Part shown: piece by piece, positions 37,424 through 45,222 of the stretch
Position numbering within the stretch: position 1 is the stretch's first letter
Layout: each line of letters opens with the position of its first letter
Source: Escherichia coli
Lineage (GTDB): Bacteria > Pseudomonadota > Gammaproteobacteria > Enterobacterales > Enterobacteriaceae
DNA: 64,000 bases
NCBI RefSeq assembly: GCF_041248615.1
Contig: NZ_CP158426.1
Reading direction: 5' to 3' (one strand)
The notes under the pieces: model-generated
The model's input: the letters and a program-made list of their open reading frames with translations, nothing else
What the model was told of the DNA's origin: nothing
Databases searched by the model: none
Made by a program: the position numbers and the translations under genes

Positions 37424-38254
37424 ATGCAAAACATTACCCAGTCCTGGTTTGTCCAGGGAATGATCAAAGCCACCACCGATGCCTGGCTGAAAGGCTGGGA
37501 CGAGCGCAACGGCGGCAACCTGACGCTGCGCCTGGATGACGCCGATATCGCGCTTTATCACGACAACTTCCACCCACAACCGCGCTATATTCCGCTCAGC
37601 CAACCCATGCCTTTACTGGCAAATACGCCGTTTATTGTCACCGGCTCCGGCAAATTCTTCCGTAACGTCCAGCTCGATCCTGCAGCTAACTTAGGCGTCG
37701 TAAAAGTCGACAGCGATGGCGCGGGCTACCATATTCTCTGGGGGTTAACCAACGAAGCCGTCCCCACTTCCGAACTTCCGGCTCACTTCCTTTCCCACTG
37801 CGAGCGCATTAAAGCCACCAACGGTAAAGATCGCGTGATCATGCACTGCCATGCCACCAACCTGATCGCCCTTACCTACGTACTGGAAAACGACACCGCG
37901 GTCTTCACTCGCCAGCTTTGGGAAGGCAGCACCGAGTGTCTGGTAGTGTTCCCGGATGGCGTCGGCATTTTGCCGTGGATGGTGCCCGGCACGGACGAAA
38001 TCGGCCAGGCGACCGCACAGGAAATGCAAAAACATTCGCTGGTGTTGTGGCCCTTCCACGGCGTCTTCGGCAGCGGTCCGACACTGGATGAAACATTCGG
38101 TTTAATCGACACCGCAGAAAAATCAGCACAAGTATTAGTGAAGGTTTATTCGATGGGCGGCATGAAACAGACCATCAGTCGTGAAGAGCTGATAGCGCTC
38201 GGCCAGCGTTTCGGCGTTACACCACTCGCCAGTGCGCTGGCGCTGGCGCTGTAA
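37424..38254 (+). CDS. rhaD: Rhamnulose-1-phosphate aldolase
   Basis: ORF 37334..38254 runs through the REP; ATG at 37424 gives [32 protein letters not shown]... (~274-276 aa). Confidence 0.95.
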
Positions 38255-38263
38255 GGAGCAAAC

Positions 38264-38578
38264 ATGATCCGCAAAGCCTTTGTCATGCAGGTTAACCCCG
38301 ACGCCCACGAAGAGTATCAGCGTCGGCATAATCCAATCTGGCCGGAACTGGAAGCAGTGTTGAAATCTCACGGTGCGCATAACTACACCATTTACCTCGA
38401 CAAAGCGCGTAATCTGCTGTTTGCCACGGTAGAGATTGAATCTGAAGAACGGTGGAATGCGGTAGCCAGTACTGATGTTTGCCAACGTTGGTGGAAATAT
38501 ATGACCGACGTTATGCCAGCTAACCCGGATAACAGCCCAGTCAGTAGCGAGCTGCAAGAAGTGTTTTACCTGCCTTAA
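38264..38578 (+). CDS. rhaM: L-rhamnose mutarotase
   Basis: 104 aa, [41 protein letters not shown]... Confidence 0.95.
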
Positions 38579-38618
38579 TGAGTTGCGGTGCCGGAAAATA
38601 TCCAGCACCGCGACTTCA

Positions 38619-40013
38619 TCAGAAGAAGTATTTAAAGCGAACGCGTGCGCCGTAACGGTCATCAGTATCATCACCGTGTTTTTTATCACCGTCGCTATCC
38701 AGAATGGAGTAATACGTCCCGAGGTAAATATTAAAGTTCTCCATATCCATCACATTAGCGAACTGATAAGACGCATGAATGGTGTGAATGGTGTACGTCC
38801 CTTCATCATCAATCCAGCAGTCGTTATCACAAACTACACCGCTGAATTCATCAATCTTATTGTGCGCGTAGATATAACCCAGCTCGAAACGTTTCCACAG
38901 CGCGTTAATCCCGGCAGTGAAATCTTTCTCATTATTAGCATCTAAATAGGCGGTATTAAGATTAACCACGACACCATTTTCCGGATCCGTTTTCAGGCCA
39001 TTCCAGGTCATGCTCATACCATAGCCGGTACGATCGGACTGATCGACAAAATTACCCTTGCTATCGGTATAACCATAAGCATTATTTACCACGTTCGCTT
39101 CCATCGCTGCGGAAACGGTGAATTCTTCCGTCGGCGACCAGGCAATTACCGGACGCAGATAAGCAACATTTTTCTGCTGCTCCATATCGCGTCCATGATA
39201 ATTACCGTCATTATATAAAGATGTTCCGTCTTCAAGTAACGTGTTTAATTCAAAATACCAGTTATCAAGTTGTTTGCTGACGAGGAAATTACCGCCAGCG
39301 TTAGAGCGCCCGCGGCCCTCTTTCATCATATAGATATAACCGCTGCCATCGTCATAAAGATCGTTCGCAGTATTACCGGAATGTTCAACAAAGGTATCCT
39401 GATTCAGCGGGAACATATCATAGGCTTCGAAACGACCGACTTTGACCTTCCAGTCATTCTCTTTGCCAAAGAAGAATACCGCATCATCGATATTTACTGA
39501 ACCGTGCATGTCCCCCAGCGGTTGTGCGGAGAACCCGGCGAAATAACCATTATCCAGTTTTCGCATACCATCAAAACCTAACAGAATACGACCATTGAGA
39601 TTCCACTGTTCATTAGTGGGATCGCTATTCACATCAGCGTTGGTCATTGCCAGCAAGCCATGATTACTTTCCGCATCCATATTAAATTCTACGTCGCCGT
39701 AGATTTTTAAATCGCCATAACCTGAGAGCAAAAGATTAGGTGAGGTGGCATTTTTCTTTGCAGATTCCGCCGTTGCCTGTCCATTTACCGGCGTATTGCC
39801 CTGAGCGGCCTTAATTTCGCGGATCTCAGCGGCTTGTTGTGTCTGCAACTGTTTAACCTGGCTCTCTGCTTTTGCCGCCCGCATTTCTGCCGCTTCCAGG
39901 CGTTCTTCCAGCAATGCCATGCGTTGTTCCAGCGTTAAATGCTGTGTTTTTGCCATACCGGTACTACATGCCAATAATAAACCGATGGCTAAAGATAATG
40001 TCGATTTTTTCAT
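38619..40013 (-). CDS. Putative outer-membrane beta-barrel porin with N-terminal coiled coil (carbohydrate-porin-like); occupies the position of frvABXR in K-12
   Basis: 464 aa; signal peptide MKKSTLSLAIGLLLACSTGMA, then a heptad coiled coil (LEQRMALLEERLEAAEMRAAKAESQVKQLQTQQ), an aromatic-rich region with alternating hydrophobic pattern, and a C-terminal ...RVRFKYFF ending in Phe, the OMP beta-barrel signature. Preceded by a 350-bp AT-rich region. Confidence 0.7.
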   Translation of the reverse strand: MKKSTLSLAIGLLLACSTGMAKTQHLTLEQRMALLEERLEAAEMRAAKAESQVKQLQTQQAAEIREIKAAQGNTPVNGQATAESAKKNATSPNLLLSGYGDLKIYGDVEFNMDAESNHGLLAMTNADVNSDPTNEQWNLNGRILLGFDGMRKLDNGYFAGFSAQPLGDMHGSVNIDDAVFFFGKENDWKVKVGRFEAYDMFPLNQDTFVEHSGNTANDLYDDGSGYIYMMKEGRGRSNAGGNFLVSKQLDNWYFELNTLLEDGTSLYNDGNYHGRDMEQQKNVAYLRPVIAWSPTEEFTVSAAMEANVVNNAYGYTDSKGNFVDQSDRTGYGMSMTWNGLKTDPENGVVVNLNTAYLDANNEKDFTAGINALWKRFELGYIYAHNKIDEFSGVVCDNDCWIDDEGTYTIHTIHASYQFANVMDMENFNIYLGTYYSILDSDGDKKHGDDTDDRYGARVRFKYFF

Positions 40014-40366
40014 TATTTACGTTCCCTGAAATAAAGGAGGCCCTACGCTTTCCAAAAGGAATACGTATATAGAGAAATATAAAGTGTGCACTTTCGAATT
40101 TTTAATCCAACTTCAGCAGGCCGATGGATAGTATCCCGCCGCATAATATGAGTAAATCCGCTGATTTCCTGGAACGTGAGGAATATAACAATAGTGCCGT
40201 TTTTAACCAAATATCGTAAAAAATATTAGATATAATTCACGCTGACTCATAAGCCACAAATATAAATAACGCTTAAACAAATTATCTGAGACATTTAAAC
40301 ATTCACAACATCATTAAATAATGATACTTTATTCACAAAATTTATCCTTCACTCTGCTTTATATTG

Positions 40367-41095
40367 TCACGACTTCGTGACATATCCGCGCTCATCACAA
40401 ACCCGCCCCGCGATTACAATTGACTGAAATATTTCATCGACCATTTCGTTGTACTCGCGTAACGCTCGCGGAAATGAGTCGTCGACCATCCAGCTTGTGT
40501 TTGCATCCTGAAGTTGCTCTTTATCCCAGTCAGAGTACGGAACTTTATCTCTGACGCGGCGAACATATTTTTTAGCCTCGAGTTGATACTGGTCTGCCGA
40601 ATTAATGAACGAGAAATTCATACCGCCTTTATCCGCTTCTTTGGCCTGCGCCACCAGCGTTTCCAGTTCAGAGACTTTCTTCATTGCCGCATCAACATCA
40701 AACTTCTCTTGCGATATCAGGTTATTAATTTGTTTCGCTGAAATCATGACTGCCAGAGAATAGTAGTGGAATGTTTTCCCTTCTCTTTCTTCAATATTTT
40801 TCAGTTCCGCAAGCTGACGCTTATCATTAATTTCCTGGATCGCCGCATGATAAGATTCGGCTACAGGTTCAAAGGCGTCCAGATTTTTTAAGAATGTCTG
40901 GTGCAGCGTTTTCCCTTTCGCAAACGCATCGTCTTTATAATTTTCCTGGGTGTAATATTTATCCATTTCGTTAATGGTATTACCCAACGCCACGGCAGCA
41001 TCAATATAACTCACCGCCACGCCATCAATAGGTTGCAGCGCAGGCGTTAACGCTACTACACGCGTTTTGTTTATAAATAAAATAATAAAATTCAC
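40367..41095 (-). CDS. yiiG: YiiG-like protein (assigned by synteny downstream of fdhD); possibly shortened relative to K-12
   Basis: 242-aa ORF starting 49 bp after the fdhD stop with no signal peptide or lipobox at this N-terminus. Identity rests on position only; the K-12 protein is remembered as longer. Confidence 0.5.
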   Translation of the reverse strand: MNFIILFINKTRVVALTPALQPIDGVAVSYIDAAVALGNTINEMDKYYTQENYKDDAFAKGKTLHQTFLKNLDAFEPVAESYHAAIQEINDKRQLAELKNIEEREGKTFHYYSLAVMISAKQINNLISQEKFDVDAAMKKVSELETLVAQAKEADKGGMNFSFINSADQYQLEAKKYVRRVRDKVPYSDWDKEQLQDANTSWMVDDSFPRALREYNEMVDEIFQSIVIAGRVCDERGYVTKS

Positions 41096-41101
41096 GAAAT
41101 G

Positions 41102-41140
41102 AATAAGTCCTGCAATTTAATATATATCGCAGGACTTATT
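41102..41140 (-). terminator. Hairpin/terminator immediately downstream of fdhD
   Basis: AATAAGTCCTGC-(15 nt)-GCAGGACTTATT inverted repeat followed on the minus strand by a T-rich tract. Confidence 0.55.
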
Positions 41141-41144
41141 TTAA

Positions 41145-41978
41145 TTAATTGCTCAAACGCTGTGGATGAGTATAAACCGTTGCCCGACCCGGTTTACAAA
41201 AGCCCACCAGCGTCAAATTACAGCGTTCAGCCACTTCTACAGCAAGTGTGGTCGCGGCAGACACCGCAAACAAAATCTCTACGCCACACATCGCCGACTT
41301 TTGCACCATTTCATAGCTGGCACGGCTGGAAACCAGCACCGCACCTTGCTGCCAGCTTTCCCCTTCTTGTGACCGGCGGCCTAACAGTTTGTCCAGCGCC
41401 ACATGGCGACCCACGTCTTCATGCCCGCCGACCAGTTCGCCAGATGGCAACATCCATGCAGCGGCGTGAGTACAACCGGTCAGTTGCCCCACTGGCTGGA
41501 AATCATTAAGATGACGTAATGCATCATCCAGTTTGTTGAGATCAAACGTCTGGGTGAACGGCAGCGGCTGCACCGGTTTTCCGATATCATTAAGTTGCTC
41601 CACGCCGCACACGCCGCAGCCTGTACGCCCGGCCAGCGCCCGGCGACGTTCCTTCAACCCCATAAAGCGGCGGCTGGAAAGCTCAATTTGAACTTCAAGA
41701 CCATTACAGGAAGGAACGACATCCATGCCGAAGATATCGCGCGGACTTTCTATTATCCCCTCGGAAAGCGAAAAACCGAGCGCAAAGTACTCAAGGTCTT
41801 TGGGCGACGCCATCATCACCACATGCGAAATGCCGTTGTAGACCAGCGCAACGGGAACTTCTTCCGCGACCTCATCTAACCGTGGGTGTTGTAAATCATC
41901 ACGCCGCCATAACTCAATTTGACGAACACCTGTGATATTTGTCACATTTTCGATTTCTTTTTGCTGTGTTTTTTTCAC
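41145..41978 (-). CDS. fdhD: Formate dehydrogenase accessory sulfurtransferase FdhD
   Basis: 277 aa, (GTG start) [37 protein letters not shown]... with GCGVCG motif. Confidence 0.94.
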
Positions 41979-42171
41979 TTTCTCTTAACCAGATAAGAAC
42001 ACACACACCAACATTATGGTATTCTGTTACAAACCCTTCCTGGATGGAGGGAAATTGAGCCAATTCTGGACCTTTGCGGCCCCTTCCGCAAAGAAAAATA
42101 ACTCCCACTCCCTGCACACGCAGCAAGCGAATGTAAATGGGACGTGACAATGTCGAAACAAGGAGCAATCC

Positions 42172-45100
42172 ATGCAGGTCAGCAGAAGGCAGTTCTTTAA
42201 GATCTGCGCTGGCGGTATGGCAGGCACCACGGCAGCGGCACTGGGTTTTGCACCCAGCGTAGCACTCGCGGAAACCCGGCAGTATAAACTGCTGCGCACC
42301 CGCGAAACCCGTAATACCTGCACCTATTGTTCCGTAGGCTGTGGGCTGTTGATGTACAGCCTCGGTGACGGAGCAAAAAACGCCAAAGCATCTATCTTCC
42401 ATATCGAAGGCGATCCGGATCACCCGGTCAACCGCGGTGCACTTTGTCCGAAAGGCGCTGGCCTGGTGGATTTCATCCACTCCGAAAGCCGTCTGAAGTT
42501 TCCGGAATACCGTGCGCCAGGTTCTGATAAATGGCAGCAAATCAGTTGGGAAGAGGCGTTTGATCGCATCGCCAAACTGATGAAAGAAGACCGCGATGCT
42601 AACTACATTGCGCAAAACGCCGAAGGCGTGACTGTTAACCGCTGGCTCTCCACCGGGATGCTGTGTGCTTCCGCGTCGAGTAACGAAACCGGCTATTTAA
42701 CGCAAAAATTCTCCCGCGCGCTGGGTATGCTCGCGGTCGACAACCAGGCGCGTGTCTGACACGGACCAACGGTAGCAAGTCTTGCTCCAACATTTGGTCG
42801 CGGTGCGATGACCAACCACTGGGTCGACATCAAGAACGCCAACCTCGTCGTGGTGATGGGCGGTAACGCCGCTGAAGCTCACCCGGTCGGGTTCCGCTGG
42901 GCGATGGAAGCCAAAATTCACAACGGCGCGAAGCTGATTGTGATCGATCCTCGCTTTACGCGTACGGCGGCGGTGGCTGACTACTATGCCCCTATTCGTT
43001 CCGGTACTGACATTGCTTTCCTGTCAGGCGTATTGCTGTACCTGCTGAACAATGAAAAATTCAACCGCGAATACACCGAAGCCTATACCAACGCCAGCCT
43101 TATCGTGCGTGAGGATTACGGCTTTGAAGATGGCCTGTTCACCGGCTACGACGCGGAAAAACGCAAGTACGATAAATCCTCCTGGACTTACGAACTGGAC
43201 GAAAACGGCTTCGCCAAACGCGATACCACGCTGCAACATCCGCGCTGCGTGTGGAACTTGCTGAAACAGCACGTTTCCCGCTACACGCCAGATGTGGTTG
43301 AAAACATCTGTGGTACGCCAAAAGACGCGTTCCTGAAAGTCTGCGAATACATCGCCGAAACCAGTGCTCACGATAAAACTGCCTCGTTCCTGTATGCCCT
43401 CGGCTGGACGCAACACTCTGTTGGTGCGCAAAACATTCGTACGATGGCGATGATCCAGCTGCTGCTCGGCAATATGGGGATGGCAGGCGGCGGCGTTAAC
43501 GCCCTGCGCGGTCACTCCAATATTCAGGGGCTGACGGACCTGGGGCTGCTGTCGCAGAGCCTGCCGGGTTACATGACGTTGCCGAGCGAGAAGCAGACCG
43601 ATCTGCAAACCTACCTTACAGCCAACACGCCAAAACCGCTGCTGGAAGGTCAGGTAAACTACTGGGGCAACTACCCGAAATTCTTCGTCTCCATGATGAA
43701 GGCCTTCTTTGGTGATAAAGCGACGGCGGAAAATAGCTGGGGCTTTGACTGGTTGCCGAAGTGGGATAAAGGCTACGACGTCCTGCAATACTTCGAGATG
43801 ATGAAAGAAGGCAAGGTCAATGGCTATATCTGCCAGGGCTTTAACCCTGTTGCCTCATTCCCGAACAAAAACAAAGTGATCGGTTGTCTGTCGAAACTGA
43901 AGTTCCTCGTCACCATCGACCCGCTGAACACTGAAACCTCTAACTTCTGGCAGAACCACGGTGAGCTGAACGAAGTTGACTCGTCGAAGATCCAGACCGA
44001 AGTGTTCCGTCTGCCATCGACCTGCTTCGCGGAAGAGAACGGTTCTATCGTTAACTCCGGTCGCTGGTTGCAGTGGCACTGGAAAGGTGCGGACGCCCCG
44101 GGGATTGCGCTGACTGATGGCGAGATCCTCTCCGGTATCTTCCTGCGCTTGCGCAAGATGTATGCCGAACAGGGTGGCGCGAACCCGGACCAGGTGCTGA
44201 ACATGACCTGGAACTACGCCATCCCGCATGAGCCGAAGTCGGAAGAAGTGGCGATGGAGAGCAACGGTAAGGCGCTGGCCGATATTACCGATCCGGCAAC
44301 CGGGGCGGTTATCGTCAAGAAAGGCCAACAACTTAGCTCGTTCGCCCAACTGCGCGATGACGGTACCACCTCCTGTGGCTGCTGGATTTTCGCCGGTAGC
44401 TGGACGCCAGAGGGCAACCAGATGGCACGCCGTGATAACGCCGATCCGTCTGGCCTCGGTAACACGCTGGGCTGGGCATGGGCATGGCCGCTTAACCGCC
44501 GCATTCTGTATAACCGCGCCTCCGCAGATCCGCAGGGTAACCCGTGGGATCCGAAGCGTCAGTTGCTGAAATGGGACGGCACCAAATGGACCGGCTGGGA
44601 TATTCCGGACTACAGCGCAGCACCTCCGGGCAGTGGCGTCGGGCCGTTTATCATGCAGCAGGAAGGCATGGGACGTCTGTTTGCCCTTGATAAGATGGCG
44701 GAAGGTCCGTTCCCGGAACACTACGAGCCGTTTGAAACGCCGCTGGGAACTAACCCGCTGCATCCAAACGTTATCTCGAACCCGGCTGCGCGTATCTTTA
44801 AAGACGACGCCGAAGCGTTGGGTAAAGCCGATAAGTTCCCGTATGTCGGAACCACCTATCGTCTGACCGAGCACTTCCACTACTGGACCAAACACGCGCT
44901 GTTGAACGCGATTTTGCAACCAGAGCAGTTTGTGGAAATCGGGGAGTCGCTGGCGAATAAACTTGGCATTGCCCAGGGCGATACCGTGAAAGTCTCCTCC
45001 AACCGTGGCTATATCAAAGCCAAAGCGGTGGTGACCAAACGTATTCGCACGCTGAAAGCGAACGGCAAAGATATCGATACCATCGGTATTCCGATTCACT

Positions 45101-45222
45101 GGGGCTATGAAGGCGTAGCTAAAAAAGGCTTTATTGCCAATACGTTAACGCCATTCGTTGGTGATGCGAACACGCAGACGCCGGAGTTTAAGTCCTTCCT
45201 TGTGAATGTGGAAAAGGTGTAA
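42172..45222 (+). CDS. fdoG: Formate dehydrogenase-O major subunit; selenocysteine encoded by in-frame TGA at 42757-42759
   Basis: Track ORFs 42172..42759 and 42808..45222 are in the same frame and joined by one TGA (..NQARV-U-HGPTVASLAPTFGRGAMTNHW..). Tat signal RRQFFK at the N-terminus; 1016 codons in total. Confidence 0.95.
42760..42800 (+). promoter_or_regulatory. SECIS stem-loop directing selenocysteine insertion at the fdoG UGA
   Basis: Immediately 3' of the TGA: cacGGACCAAcggtaGCAAGtCTTGCtccaacatTTGGTCgc with nested complementary arms. Boundaries approximate. Confidence 0.7.

Follow-up and report, generated by a model that had tools for sequence, protein, structure and literature searches.

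A RafY-family porin gene and the deletion scars of frvABXR and yiiG between rhaM and fdhD in Escherichia coli

The region between rhaM and fdhD is very probably a variable spot of the E. coli chromosome, and the window analysed here, a stretch of 64,000 nucleotides, carries one of its three common haplotypes, combining an old RafY-family porin gene with a deletion-derived loss of frvABXR and of parts of yiiG. The arrangement is an ordinary strain polymorphism and is already known, with annotation in over a thousand RefSeq genomes, CFT073 included; the porin family has likewise been described. As the original prediction held, frvABXR is absent from the window, and the order rhaM-frvABXR-yiiG-fdhD was confirmed for K-12-type genomes. 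What has to be corrected is the K-12-centred reading of the locus: K-12 lacks the porin, and the loss of frv in the window appears to be a separate microhomology deletion. Annotation was drawn from the RefSeq record of E. coli NRZ14408, which is 100% identical to the window, and deletion junctions were mapped to the base by alignment to L002, a locus with the porin + frv haplotype. The features are as follows.

38264–38578, plus strand: rhaM (L-rhamnose mutarotase), last gene of rhaBADM and conserved left anchor (ORF list and RefSeq annotation)
38579–38618, unstranded: 40-bp spacer on which rhaM and the porin gene converge, with an imperfect G+C-rich hairpin GCGGTGCCGGA...TCCAGCACCGC (read from the sequence)
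38619–40013, minus strand: intact RafY-family glycoporin gene, 464 aa, directly after rhaM
40014–40433, unstranded: remnant of the divergent porin-frvA intergenic region (alignment to L002; base composition)
40366–40381, unstranded: inverted repeat (7+2+7, GTCACGA-CT-TCGTGAC) within what was once the frvA upstream region
40367–41095, minus strand: yiiG pseudogene remnant, a mechanical 242-aa ORF (partial DUF3829; RefSeq pseudogene flag)
40431–40434, unstranded: junction J1, TCAT, scar of a 4,791-bp deletion (alignment to L002)
41049–41053, unstranded: junction J2, scar of a 473-bp deletion (alignment to L002)
41102–41140, minus strand: hairpin with 18-nt arms just downstream of fdhD (inverted-repeat listing)
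41145–41978, minus strand: fdhD, conserved right anchor (ORF list and RefSeq annotation)

From their sequence and position, the hairpin between rhaM and the porin gene is probably a terminator shared by both, and that at 41102–41140 probably the terminator of fdhD; the former is absent from the list returned by the consensus terminator scan. The intergenic remnant comprises the AT-rich upstream region of the porin gene and the former frvA promoter and leader, and stops 13 bp short of the original frvA start codon. An Rfam scan of 38000–42300 gave no match to the porin and yiiG spacers. Its only match, a sub-threshold FdoG1 thermometer, lies outside the porin/yiiG region.

The porin: family, predicted structure and conservation

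The 464-aa ORF was confirmed as originally described, with a signal-peptide-like N-terminus MKKSTLSLAIGLLLACSTGMA and an FKYFF end, and profile comparison identifies its product as a RafY-family glycoporin (Porin_8; TCDB 1.B.15). The Pfam Porin_8 model (PF16966) matches it with E = 3.7e-154 and a score of 513.7, model positions 1–372 of 372 being aligned on residues 104–464; it is also named “carbohydrate porin”, and the gene is called rafY2 in O157:H7. Neither the porin nor the yiiG remnant matched an NCBIfam family at E up to 0.01. Sequence searches of solved structures, with the porin alone or with a 35-sequence profile, returned no porin, only chance matches or coiled-coil matches to the N-terminal helix (with the profile, weak ones to tropomyosin/GCN4 coiled coils at E about 0.03–0.04), and the fold was therefore assessed by a structure model. 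A signal peptide (residues 1–21) is followed by a predicted periplasmic helix (28–70) and, beyond a linker, by a predicted barrel of 16 strands (about residues 101–463) with a C-terminal Phe; a long, highly conserved loop (195–240) lies between predicted strands 5 and 6. The signal peptide, the predicted barrel of about 16 strands and the C-terminal aromatic residue are features of the RafY family. The model is of moderate confidence (mean pLDDT 65.6, and below 50 in the putative constriction loop 200–237), which makes both the number of strands and the identification of the loop provisional. Profile match and model together support the earlier proposal of a porin of the outer membrane whose N-terminal part forms a coiled-coil-like helix, although the helix is predicted to span about 43 residues rather than about 60.

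RafY of the raffinose plasmid pRSD2 shares with the window porin the Pfam family over the whole barrel, a length of 464 codons and the ...FKYFF end, and amino-acid identity to plasmid RafY-type porins reaches 78–79% over 97–100% of the length. The porin at this level of identity is the last gene of rafR-rafA-rafB-rafD operons, on IncF plasmids as well as on one chromosomal island, whereas the window porin is chromosomal, convergent with rhaM and, at a dS of about 0.9 to plasmid rafY, a distinct allele. No raf genes were found at the window locus or beside the E. coli chromosomal copies at the same site, where the neighbour is frvABXR or, as in the window, nothing, rather than rafRABD. ScrY and LamB (PF02264, 18 strands) are likewise outer-membrane sugar channels, and ScrY has an N-terminal periplasmic coiled coil that the predicted helix of the window porin may resemble; Pfam gave a weak Sugarporin_N match at residues 27–54 (E = 0.06) and no match of the sugar-porin barrel profile to the window porin, and neither the single sequence nor the 35-sequence profile matched ScrY or LamB chains at E up to 10. 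In a published analysis the RafY and sugar-porin families are nearest neighbours (PMC4827864). DcaP of Acinetobacter baumannii (PDB 6eus), VhChiP, OprP, PorB and Omp32 are 16-strand trimeric porins with other substrates, and their identity to the window porin is 7–13%, with no detectable sequence kinship.

Judging from its sequence and from published work on plasmid RafY, the porin would be exported through Sec and inserted into the outer membrane by BAM via the C-terminal ...FKYFF signal, its N-terminal helix reaching into the periplasm. The predicted 16-strand barrel would most likely be trimeric, with a channel narrowed by the conserved internal loop, and by analogy may let di- to tetrasaccharides diffuse through a wide channel. 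The single-channel conductance of RafY is reported to be roughly 2.9 nS in 1 M KCl. Trimer and pore properties are transferred from the published plasmid RafY work, cited through PMC4827864; by the title of one paper cited there (Andersen et al. 1998), plasmid RafY was reported as a general diffusion pore lacking any sugar-binding site. A literature search yielded no experimental characterisation of the rhaM-linked porin, the only mention being “rafY2” in O157:H7, and a search on the frv operon together with a porin yielded nothing relevant. A 2026 preprint describes an upregulated RafY-family porin in Klebsiella pneumoniae that confers a fitness advantage in a microbiota community. Since RafY-type pores are wide, studies of how oligosaccharides are taken up or antibiotics enter the cell could reasonably take this strongly conserved and apparently uncharacterised chromosomal homologue as a candidate.

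All seven E. coli porin alleles examined keep 464 intact codons, with dN/dS of 0.01–0.06 at dS up to 0.4, the frv-less lineage included; for the two window-type sub-haplotypes dN/dS is 0.04–0.05 at dS of 0.22–0.25. The gene is intact and, by these substitution ratios, under strong purifying selection, and because this holds without frv, the porin would seem to have a use independent of that operon. It could be argued instead that the porin is a cryptic evolutionary leftover with no current function, silenced through its AT-rich upstream region or needing the lost FrvR or the absent RafR, and indeed a requirement for FrvR would leave it silent in the window strain. E. coli offers no partner raf genes, half of its genomes do without the porin, and porin-less K-12 is not known to show a recognised phenotype. 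The upstream spacer, originally proposed as an AT-rich promoter region of about 350 bp, is of that length and composition (353 bp, 34–37% G+C), but the promoter itself found no backing, as a promoter/terminator consensus scan of 38500–41250 gave seven promoter-like sites against 6.1 expected by chance. Against silence stand the seven intact alleles and their low dN/dS, maintained even at the highest dS, whereas a functionless gene would be expected to decay, as the adjacent yiiG remnant did. The leftover reading is accordingly considered unlikely, and a selected porin with a use of its own is preferred.

Haplotypes of the region and their derivation

Among 5,426 complete E. coli genomes, 2,789 are of K-12 type (frv, no porin), 1,379 carry the porin between rhaM and intact frvABXR-yiiG, the latter with full yiiG, and 1,166 (21%), CFT073 among them, are of window type, with the porin and no frv; a chromosomal RafY homologue is thereby present in about 47% of complete genomes. 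Porin and frv coexist in one haplotype, and the presence of the one and the absence of the other are therefore independent events. The same rhaM-porin-frvABXR order recurs in Citrobacter, Kluyvera, Trabulsiella and Enterobacter. In the outgroup search, whose 80 listed loci do not include representatives of E. albertii, E. fergusonii or E. marmotae, the porin is convergent with rhaM at 29 loci from nine named enterobacterial genera, and frvRXBA lies on its other side at 12. Because of this synteny the porin is most likely the older resident next to rhaM and the K-12 state a loss of it. A comparison for porin relics in the K-12-type rhaM-frvA spacer (roughly 180 bp, unrelated) gave only chance matches of 9–17 bp. 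The original prediction had asked whether porin plus 242-aa yiiG might be the common, ancestral configuration; it is neither the majority state nor ancestral as a whole, while the porin itself most likely is ancestral.

Junction J1 corresponds to a 4,791-bp deletion (L002 11268–16058) at a 4-bp microhomology, TCAT, by which all four frv genes (frvA, frvB, frvX and frvR) and the final 19 bp of yiiG were lost; the exact junction occurs in 1,161 complete genomes, again with CFT073. Junction J2 corresponds to a 473-bp deletion (L002 16679–17151) that removed yiiG codons 1–139 and 56 bp upstream and lies between 8-bp direct repeats, AACGCCAC. It is also present in loci L007 and L008 and in CFT073, as checked locus by locus, since matches to a 101-bp J2 query can bridge gaps of up to about 550 bp and cover undeleted genomes too. 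A 28-bp segment of the porin + frv haplotype is further missing at about 40336–40345, between CAAAATTTAT-like repeats. These scars suggest that the window haplotype derived from porin + frvABXR + yiiG by illegitimate recombination between short repeats, with 4,791 bp lost at TCAT, 473 bp between the AACGCCAC copies and the 28-bp segment in addition; K-12 would then represent the opposite outcome, with frv retained and the porin absent.

J1 and J2 are common to CFT073, AR_0089 and GN05064. CFT073 (NC_004431.1, 4,609,528–4,613,085) has the same order, fdhD / DUF3829 pseudogene / carbohydrate porin / rhaM, with the same two junctions, but differs from the window by the further loss of 125 bp from within the yiiG remnant and by a divergent porin allele (93% nucleotide identity, counting a 21-bp gap). 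The porin alleles of AR_0089 and GN05064, related to that of CFT073, are about 95% identical to the window's.

The earlier view that the porin had replaced frvABXR fails on position, as the porin does not occupy the frv site. Insertion of a foreign porin that displaced frvABXR in a single event would fit a comparison with K-12 alone, where the porin is present in the one and frv in the other, as well as the G+C content of the porin/yiiG region (34–47%, below the flanks), but it is refuted by the haplotype that holds both, found in the 1,379 genomes and in other genera, and is further contradicted by the clean junction that frv loss has of its own, lying within the leader of frvA and the 3′ end of yiiG, and by the lack of mobile-element genes beside the porin in the ORF list or RefSeq annotation, which together leave it next to no probability.

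Returning to derivation by deletion from a porin-bearing ancestor, it is tempting to go further and regard the rhaM-linked RafY-type porin as the fixed anchor of an Enterobacteriaceae carbohydrate-uptake hot spot, beside which cassettes (frvABXR, rafRAB, others or none) are swapped, although this wider proposal is tentative and rather less likely true than not. In Klebsiella, Raoultella and Enterobacter the rhaM-linked porin adjoins rafR-rafA-rafB, in distinction to the frvABXR or empty flank of E. coli. Were the proposal true, the orphan porin kept in lineages without any partner cassette would be a cassette-independent large-pore channel for gut oligosaccharides, and might in addition affect how antibiotics get into carbapenem-resistant strains, NRZ14408 for example. 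Separately, a two-gene insert in strain MRY15-117 gave only weak N-terminal matches to TmtA in a PADLOC scan.

The yiiG remnant and the adjacent inverted repeat

The 242-aa ORF is a pseudogene remnant that is open only by chance, and it should not be treated as a gene. It had been described as a possibly 5′-truncated yiiG that starts 49 bp after fdhD and lacks a signal peptide; all of this stands, except that the truncation affects both ends. Compared with the full 351-aa YiiG, true yiiG sequence extends only over 40435–41048, about codons 140–345 of 351. The lipoprotein signal peptide MKRNLLSSAIIVAIMALGLTGC, the lipobox LTGC and the N-terminal 139 residues are lost, and 22 unrelated residues stand in place of the final 6. 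The GTG start and the first 13–14 or so codons derive from the fdhD-yiiG spacer, while the last 22 codons and the stop are the former frvA leader read backwards. Pfam DUF3829 aligns on ORF residues 12–221 over model positions 64–282 of 285, so that the ORF shows neither the full-length domain nor the N-terminal lipoprotein signal that characterise YiiG, and RefSeq flags it as a pseudogene, “missing N-terminus”.

It is extremely improbable that the ORF encodes a shorter but working protein, with DUF3829 in a new cytoplasmic form: the frame is open over 242 codons in the window strain and its 206 retained codons carry only 4 amino-acid changes relative to the full-length protein, but the lipoprotein signal, residues 1–139 and the native 5′ region are missing from it, its mechanical GTG start directly follows the terminator-like hairpin of fdhD (41102–41140), its 22 C-terminal residues are translated leader DNA, RefSeq calls it a pseudogene, and sister genomes show further decay, by a frameshift in GN05064 and by the extra 125-bp internal deletion in AR_0089 as in CFT073.

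The repeat that overlaps the end of this remnant had been presented as a 16-bp perfect palindrome, GTCACGACTTCGTGAC (40366–40381). Its reverse complement, GTCACGAAGTCGTGAC, differs from it, the actual structure being 7-nt arms around a non-symmetric CT centre. Repeats of this kind are at chance frequency, since the window holds seven comparable ones with a 2-nt spacer and 30 with spacers of 0–4 nt. A role as operator or terminator was rejected on that frequency and on lack of conservation: the site reads GTTACGACTTCGTGAC in other window-type genomes, GTCACGACTTCACGAC in the porin + frv type and GTCATTGTTTACCGAC in the K-12 type.

Arrangement of the rhaM-fdhD interval

The locus is a common, already annotated haplotype, in which an old RafY-family porin is combined with two microhomology deletions; through these, frvABXR was lost and yiiG crippled. 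The E. coli NRZ14408 chromosome is 100% identical to window 38200-41300, and the ORF list of the window agrees with its RefSeq annotation, in which rhaD, rhaM, a "carbohydrate porin" (WP_001590962.1), a YiiG pseudogene and fdhD are called:

38264-38578, + strand, rhaM
38619-40013, - strand, 464-aa ORF (porin)
40367-41095, - strand, 242-aa ORF (yiiG-like)
41145-41978, - strand, fdhD

The porin start codon is separated from the 242-aa ORF by 353 bp with a G+C content of 34-37%. Promoter-like matches near the porin were at chance level in a consensus scan, and an Rfam scan revealed no element in the porin or yiiG spacers. On the far side of fdhD, the formate dehydrogenase-O alpha-subunit gene (42172-45222, +) is divided between two ORFs (42172-42759, 42808-45222) but annotated as a single 3,051-bp CDS in RefSeq, the split presumably reflecting the known in-frame TGA selenocysteine codon rather than a disruption. 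Upstream of this gene, 42003-42201 (+) matches the FdoG-1 5' UTR thermometer of Rfam (RF02778) below threshold, at 32 bits where the gathering score is 50 (E = 2.8e-5).

Sequence searches across 5,426 complete E. coli genomes revealed three main haplotypes, together accounting for 5,334 genomes.

Haplotypes of the locus among complete E. coli genomes
K-12 type (includes K-12), rhaM directly adjoining frvA, no porin: 2,789/5,426
Porin-plus-frv type, porin adjoining frvA, then frvB, frvX, frvR and a 351-aa yiiG: 1,379/5,426
Window type (carried by CFT073), porin directly adjoining a short yiiG: 1,166/5,426

The original prediction was thus largely accurate as an observation, its coordinates and most descriptive statements agreeing with the ORF list, base composition and RefSeq, but partly wrong as an interpretation: the porin did not replace frvABXR, since both coexist in the 1,379 genomes of the second type.

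Further variation was also observed. MRY15-117 (NZ_AP017617.1; L003 17301-20140, L090 9879-14022), a porin-plus-frv genome, shows yet another version of the rhaM-fdhD hot spot: a two-gene insert lies between fdhD and yiiG, one gene encoding a 611-aa "ATP-binding protein" and the other a hypothetical protein of 768 aa. PADLOC gave only weak N-terminal TmtA matches for the former and none for the latter. E. coli E69 (CP089930.1; L010 1-7666) represents another configuration, with a divergent porin-rhaM segment at 90% nucleotide identity to the window; the 7.6 kb flanking the porin towards frv/fdhD show no similarity to the window and contain neither frv nor yiiG nor fdhD genes.

Two deletions and the yiiG remnant

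Alignment to the O157-like porin-plus-frv genome NCCP 13892 (locus L002) resolves the window into four collinear blocks:

38000-40345 = L002 8801-11140
40336-40434 = L002 11169-11267
40434-41053 = L002 16059-16678
41049-41400 = L002 17152-17503

Besides 28 bp flanked by CAAAATTTAT-like repeats, the window lacks 4,791 bp (L002 11268-16058) and 473 bp (L002 16679-17151). The larger deletion breaks on the left 13 bp upstream of the frvA start codon (TTTTCAT, break, GGAG) and on the right 19 bp inside the yiiG 3' end (AGTCAT, break, CAACC), so that these 19 bp of yiiG are lost as well; the sole homology between its ends is TCAT. The smaller, between two copies of AACGCCAC, takes out yiiG codons 1-139 and 56 bp upstream. 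GN05064, AR_0089 and CFT073 are continuous across both junctions, and a 101-bp probe spanning the first is fully matched in 1,161 complete E. coli genomes. The window type is accordingly a deletion derivative of the porin-plus-frv arrangement. In NCCP 13892 itself, rhaT (L002 2248-3282) is a RefSeq pseudogene with an internal stop.

The suspicion that yiiG is shortened at its 5' end was borne out. Compared with full YiiG, a 351-aa lipoprotein with the N-terminus MKRNLLSSAIIVAIMALGLTGC, the 242-aa ORF keeps residues ~140-345; its first ~13-14 codons are translated spacer directly after the probable fdhD terminator hairpin (41102-41140), and its last 22 are translated frvA leader. Pfam DUF3829 covers it only at model positions 64-282 of 285, and RefSeq flags the NRZ14408 copy of this "YiiG family protein" as a pseudogene ("incomplete; missing N-terminus"). 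The ORF is a pseudogene remnant, further damaged in relatives by a frameshift (GN05064) or a 125-bp internal deletion (AR_0089 and CFT073). The supposed 16-bp perfect palindrome at its stop codon, GTCACGACTTCGTGAC, is a 7+2+7 inverted repeat, one of seven with a 2-nt spacer in the window. Located in what used to be the upstream region of frvA, it differs in each haplotype, and it overlaps the stop codon only as a consequence of the deletion.

The RafY-family porin

Residues 104-464 of the 464-aa protein match the full Pfam model Porin_8, "porin-like glycoporin RafY" (E = 3.7e-154), whereas Sugarporin_N, the ScrY-type N-terminal extension, is matched only marginally (E = 0.06, residues 27-54); NCBIfam has no model for this porin. 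The proposed likeness to ScrY, an N-terminal coiled coil on a barrel, is a fair description of architecture, but the porin does not belong to the ScrY/LamB family. AlphaFold2 on a 35-sequence alignment (moderate quality, mean pLDDT 65.6, pTM 0.61) predicts a signal helix followed by a single long helix (28-70), a disordered linker and 16 beta strands. Between strands 5 and 6 it places a long loop (195-240), modelled with low confidence, although no part of the family alignment is more conserved. Among solved structures none was matched by sequence as a porin, even with the 35-sequence profile, which picked up only coiled-coil proteins against the N-terminal segment. A published survey describes the RafY family as 16-stranded and the nearest neighbour of the sugar-porin family (PMC4827864), and a finding cited there has RafY as a general diffusion pore.

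On plasmids, relatives sharing 78-79% identity occupy the final position in operons encoding a LacI-type regulator, alpha-galactosidase, MFS permease and GH32 hydrolase, i.e., the raf operon, and are therefore RafY itself; the same cassette, porin included, also occurs on a chromosomal island. The chromosomal homologue has been termed "rafY2" in O157:H7, where rafRABD is absent (PMC4809568). Although widespread and well conserved, it has apparently never been characterised.

The seven E. coli alleles compared all retain 464 intact codons, with dN/dS of 0.01-0.06 overall and 0.04-0.05 (dS 0.22-0.25) between the window allele and those of AR_0089 and GN05064, which share the frv deletion. This purifying selection, set against the decay seen in the neighbouring yiiG remnant, argues for a function independent of frv. 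A dS of 0.22-0.25 between alleles with identical frv and yiiG junctions (38619-40013 vs window-type loci L007, L008 and, from CFT073, L089) seems unusually deep within E. coli, and the window allele is closer to those of porin-plus-frv genomes (dS 0.07-0.10), a pattern suggestive of recombination across the locus at a time when the deletions already existed.

Ancestry of the locus

Scanning one genome per species revealed porin relatives in many Enterobacteriaceae. In 29 loci, from Kluyvera, Citrobacter, Klebsiella, Raoultella, Enterobacter, Pseudocitrobacter, Superficieibacter, Trabulsiella and Escherichia, rhaM adjoins the porin or lies within a few kb downstream; in 12, frvRXBA lies on the other side, often followed by fdhD. 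Kluyvera georgiana has ~950 bp between fdhD and the porin, with no frv, raf or yiiG gene, and in Citrobacter braakii frvA and the porin are separated by three unrelated ORFs, two of them for membrane proteins and one for an XRE-type regulator. Mapping of E. coli neighbour genes onto these loci thus identifies the porin-rhaM pair as the stable element and the porin-to-fdhD space as variable.

Judged by this synteny, the porin-plus-frv arrangement is the strongest candidate for the state ancestral in E. coli, and the K-12 type was most likely derived by porin loss. The K-12-type rhaM-frvA spacer (L004 2852-3031, vs L002 9374-11152) contains a terminator-like hairpin of its own (GTGCCGGAG-ACGC-CTCCGGCAC) and roughly 180 bp of AT-rich DNA without similarity to the porin haplotype. 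Homology is regained ~133 bp upstream of frvA, at no more than 81% identity, and frvA with its leader is 81-89% identical between the two haplotypes, so that these are alleles of long-standing divergence and not the outcome of a clean deletion in recent times; the porin loss would be old or imported, and has left no visible mark of its mechanism.

Chromosomal rafR-rafA-rafB is immediately upstream of the rhaM-linked porin in Klebsiella, Raoultella and Enterobacter sp. JUb54; two other Enterobacter genomes have it immediately downstream (loci L018, L019, L024 and L025 from Klebsiella, Enterobacter and Raoultella; L020 and L030 from Enterobacter). Because of this adjacency, the plasmid raf operon with rafY may have originated at the rhaM-linked chromosomal locus.
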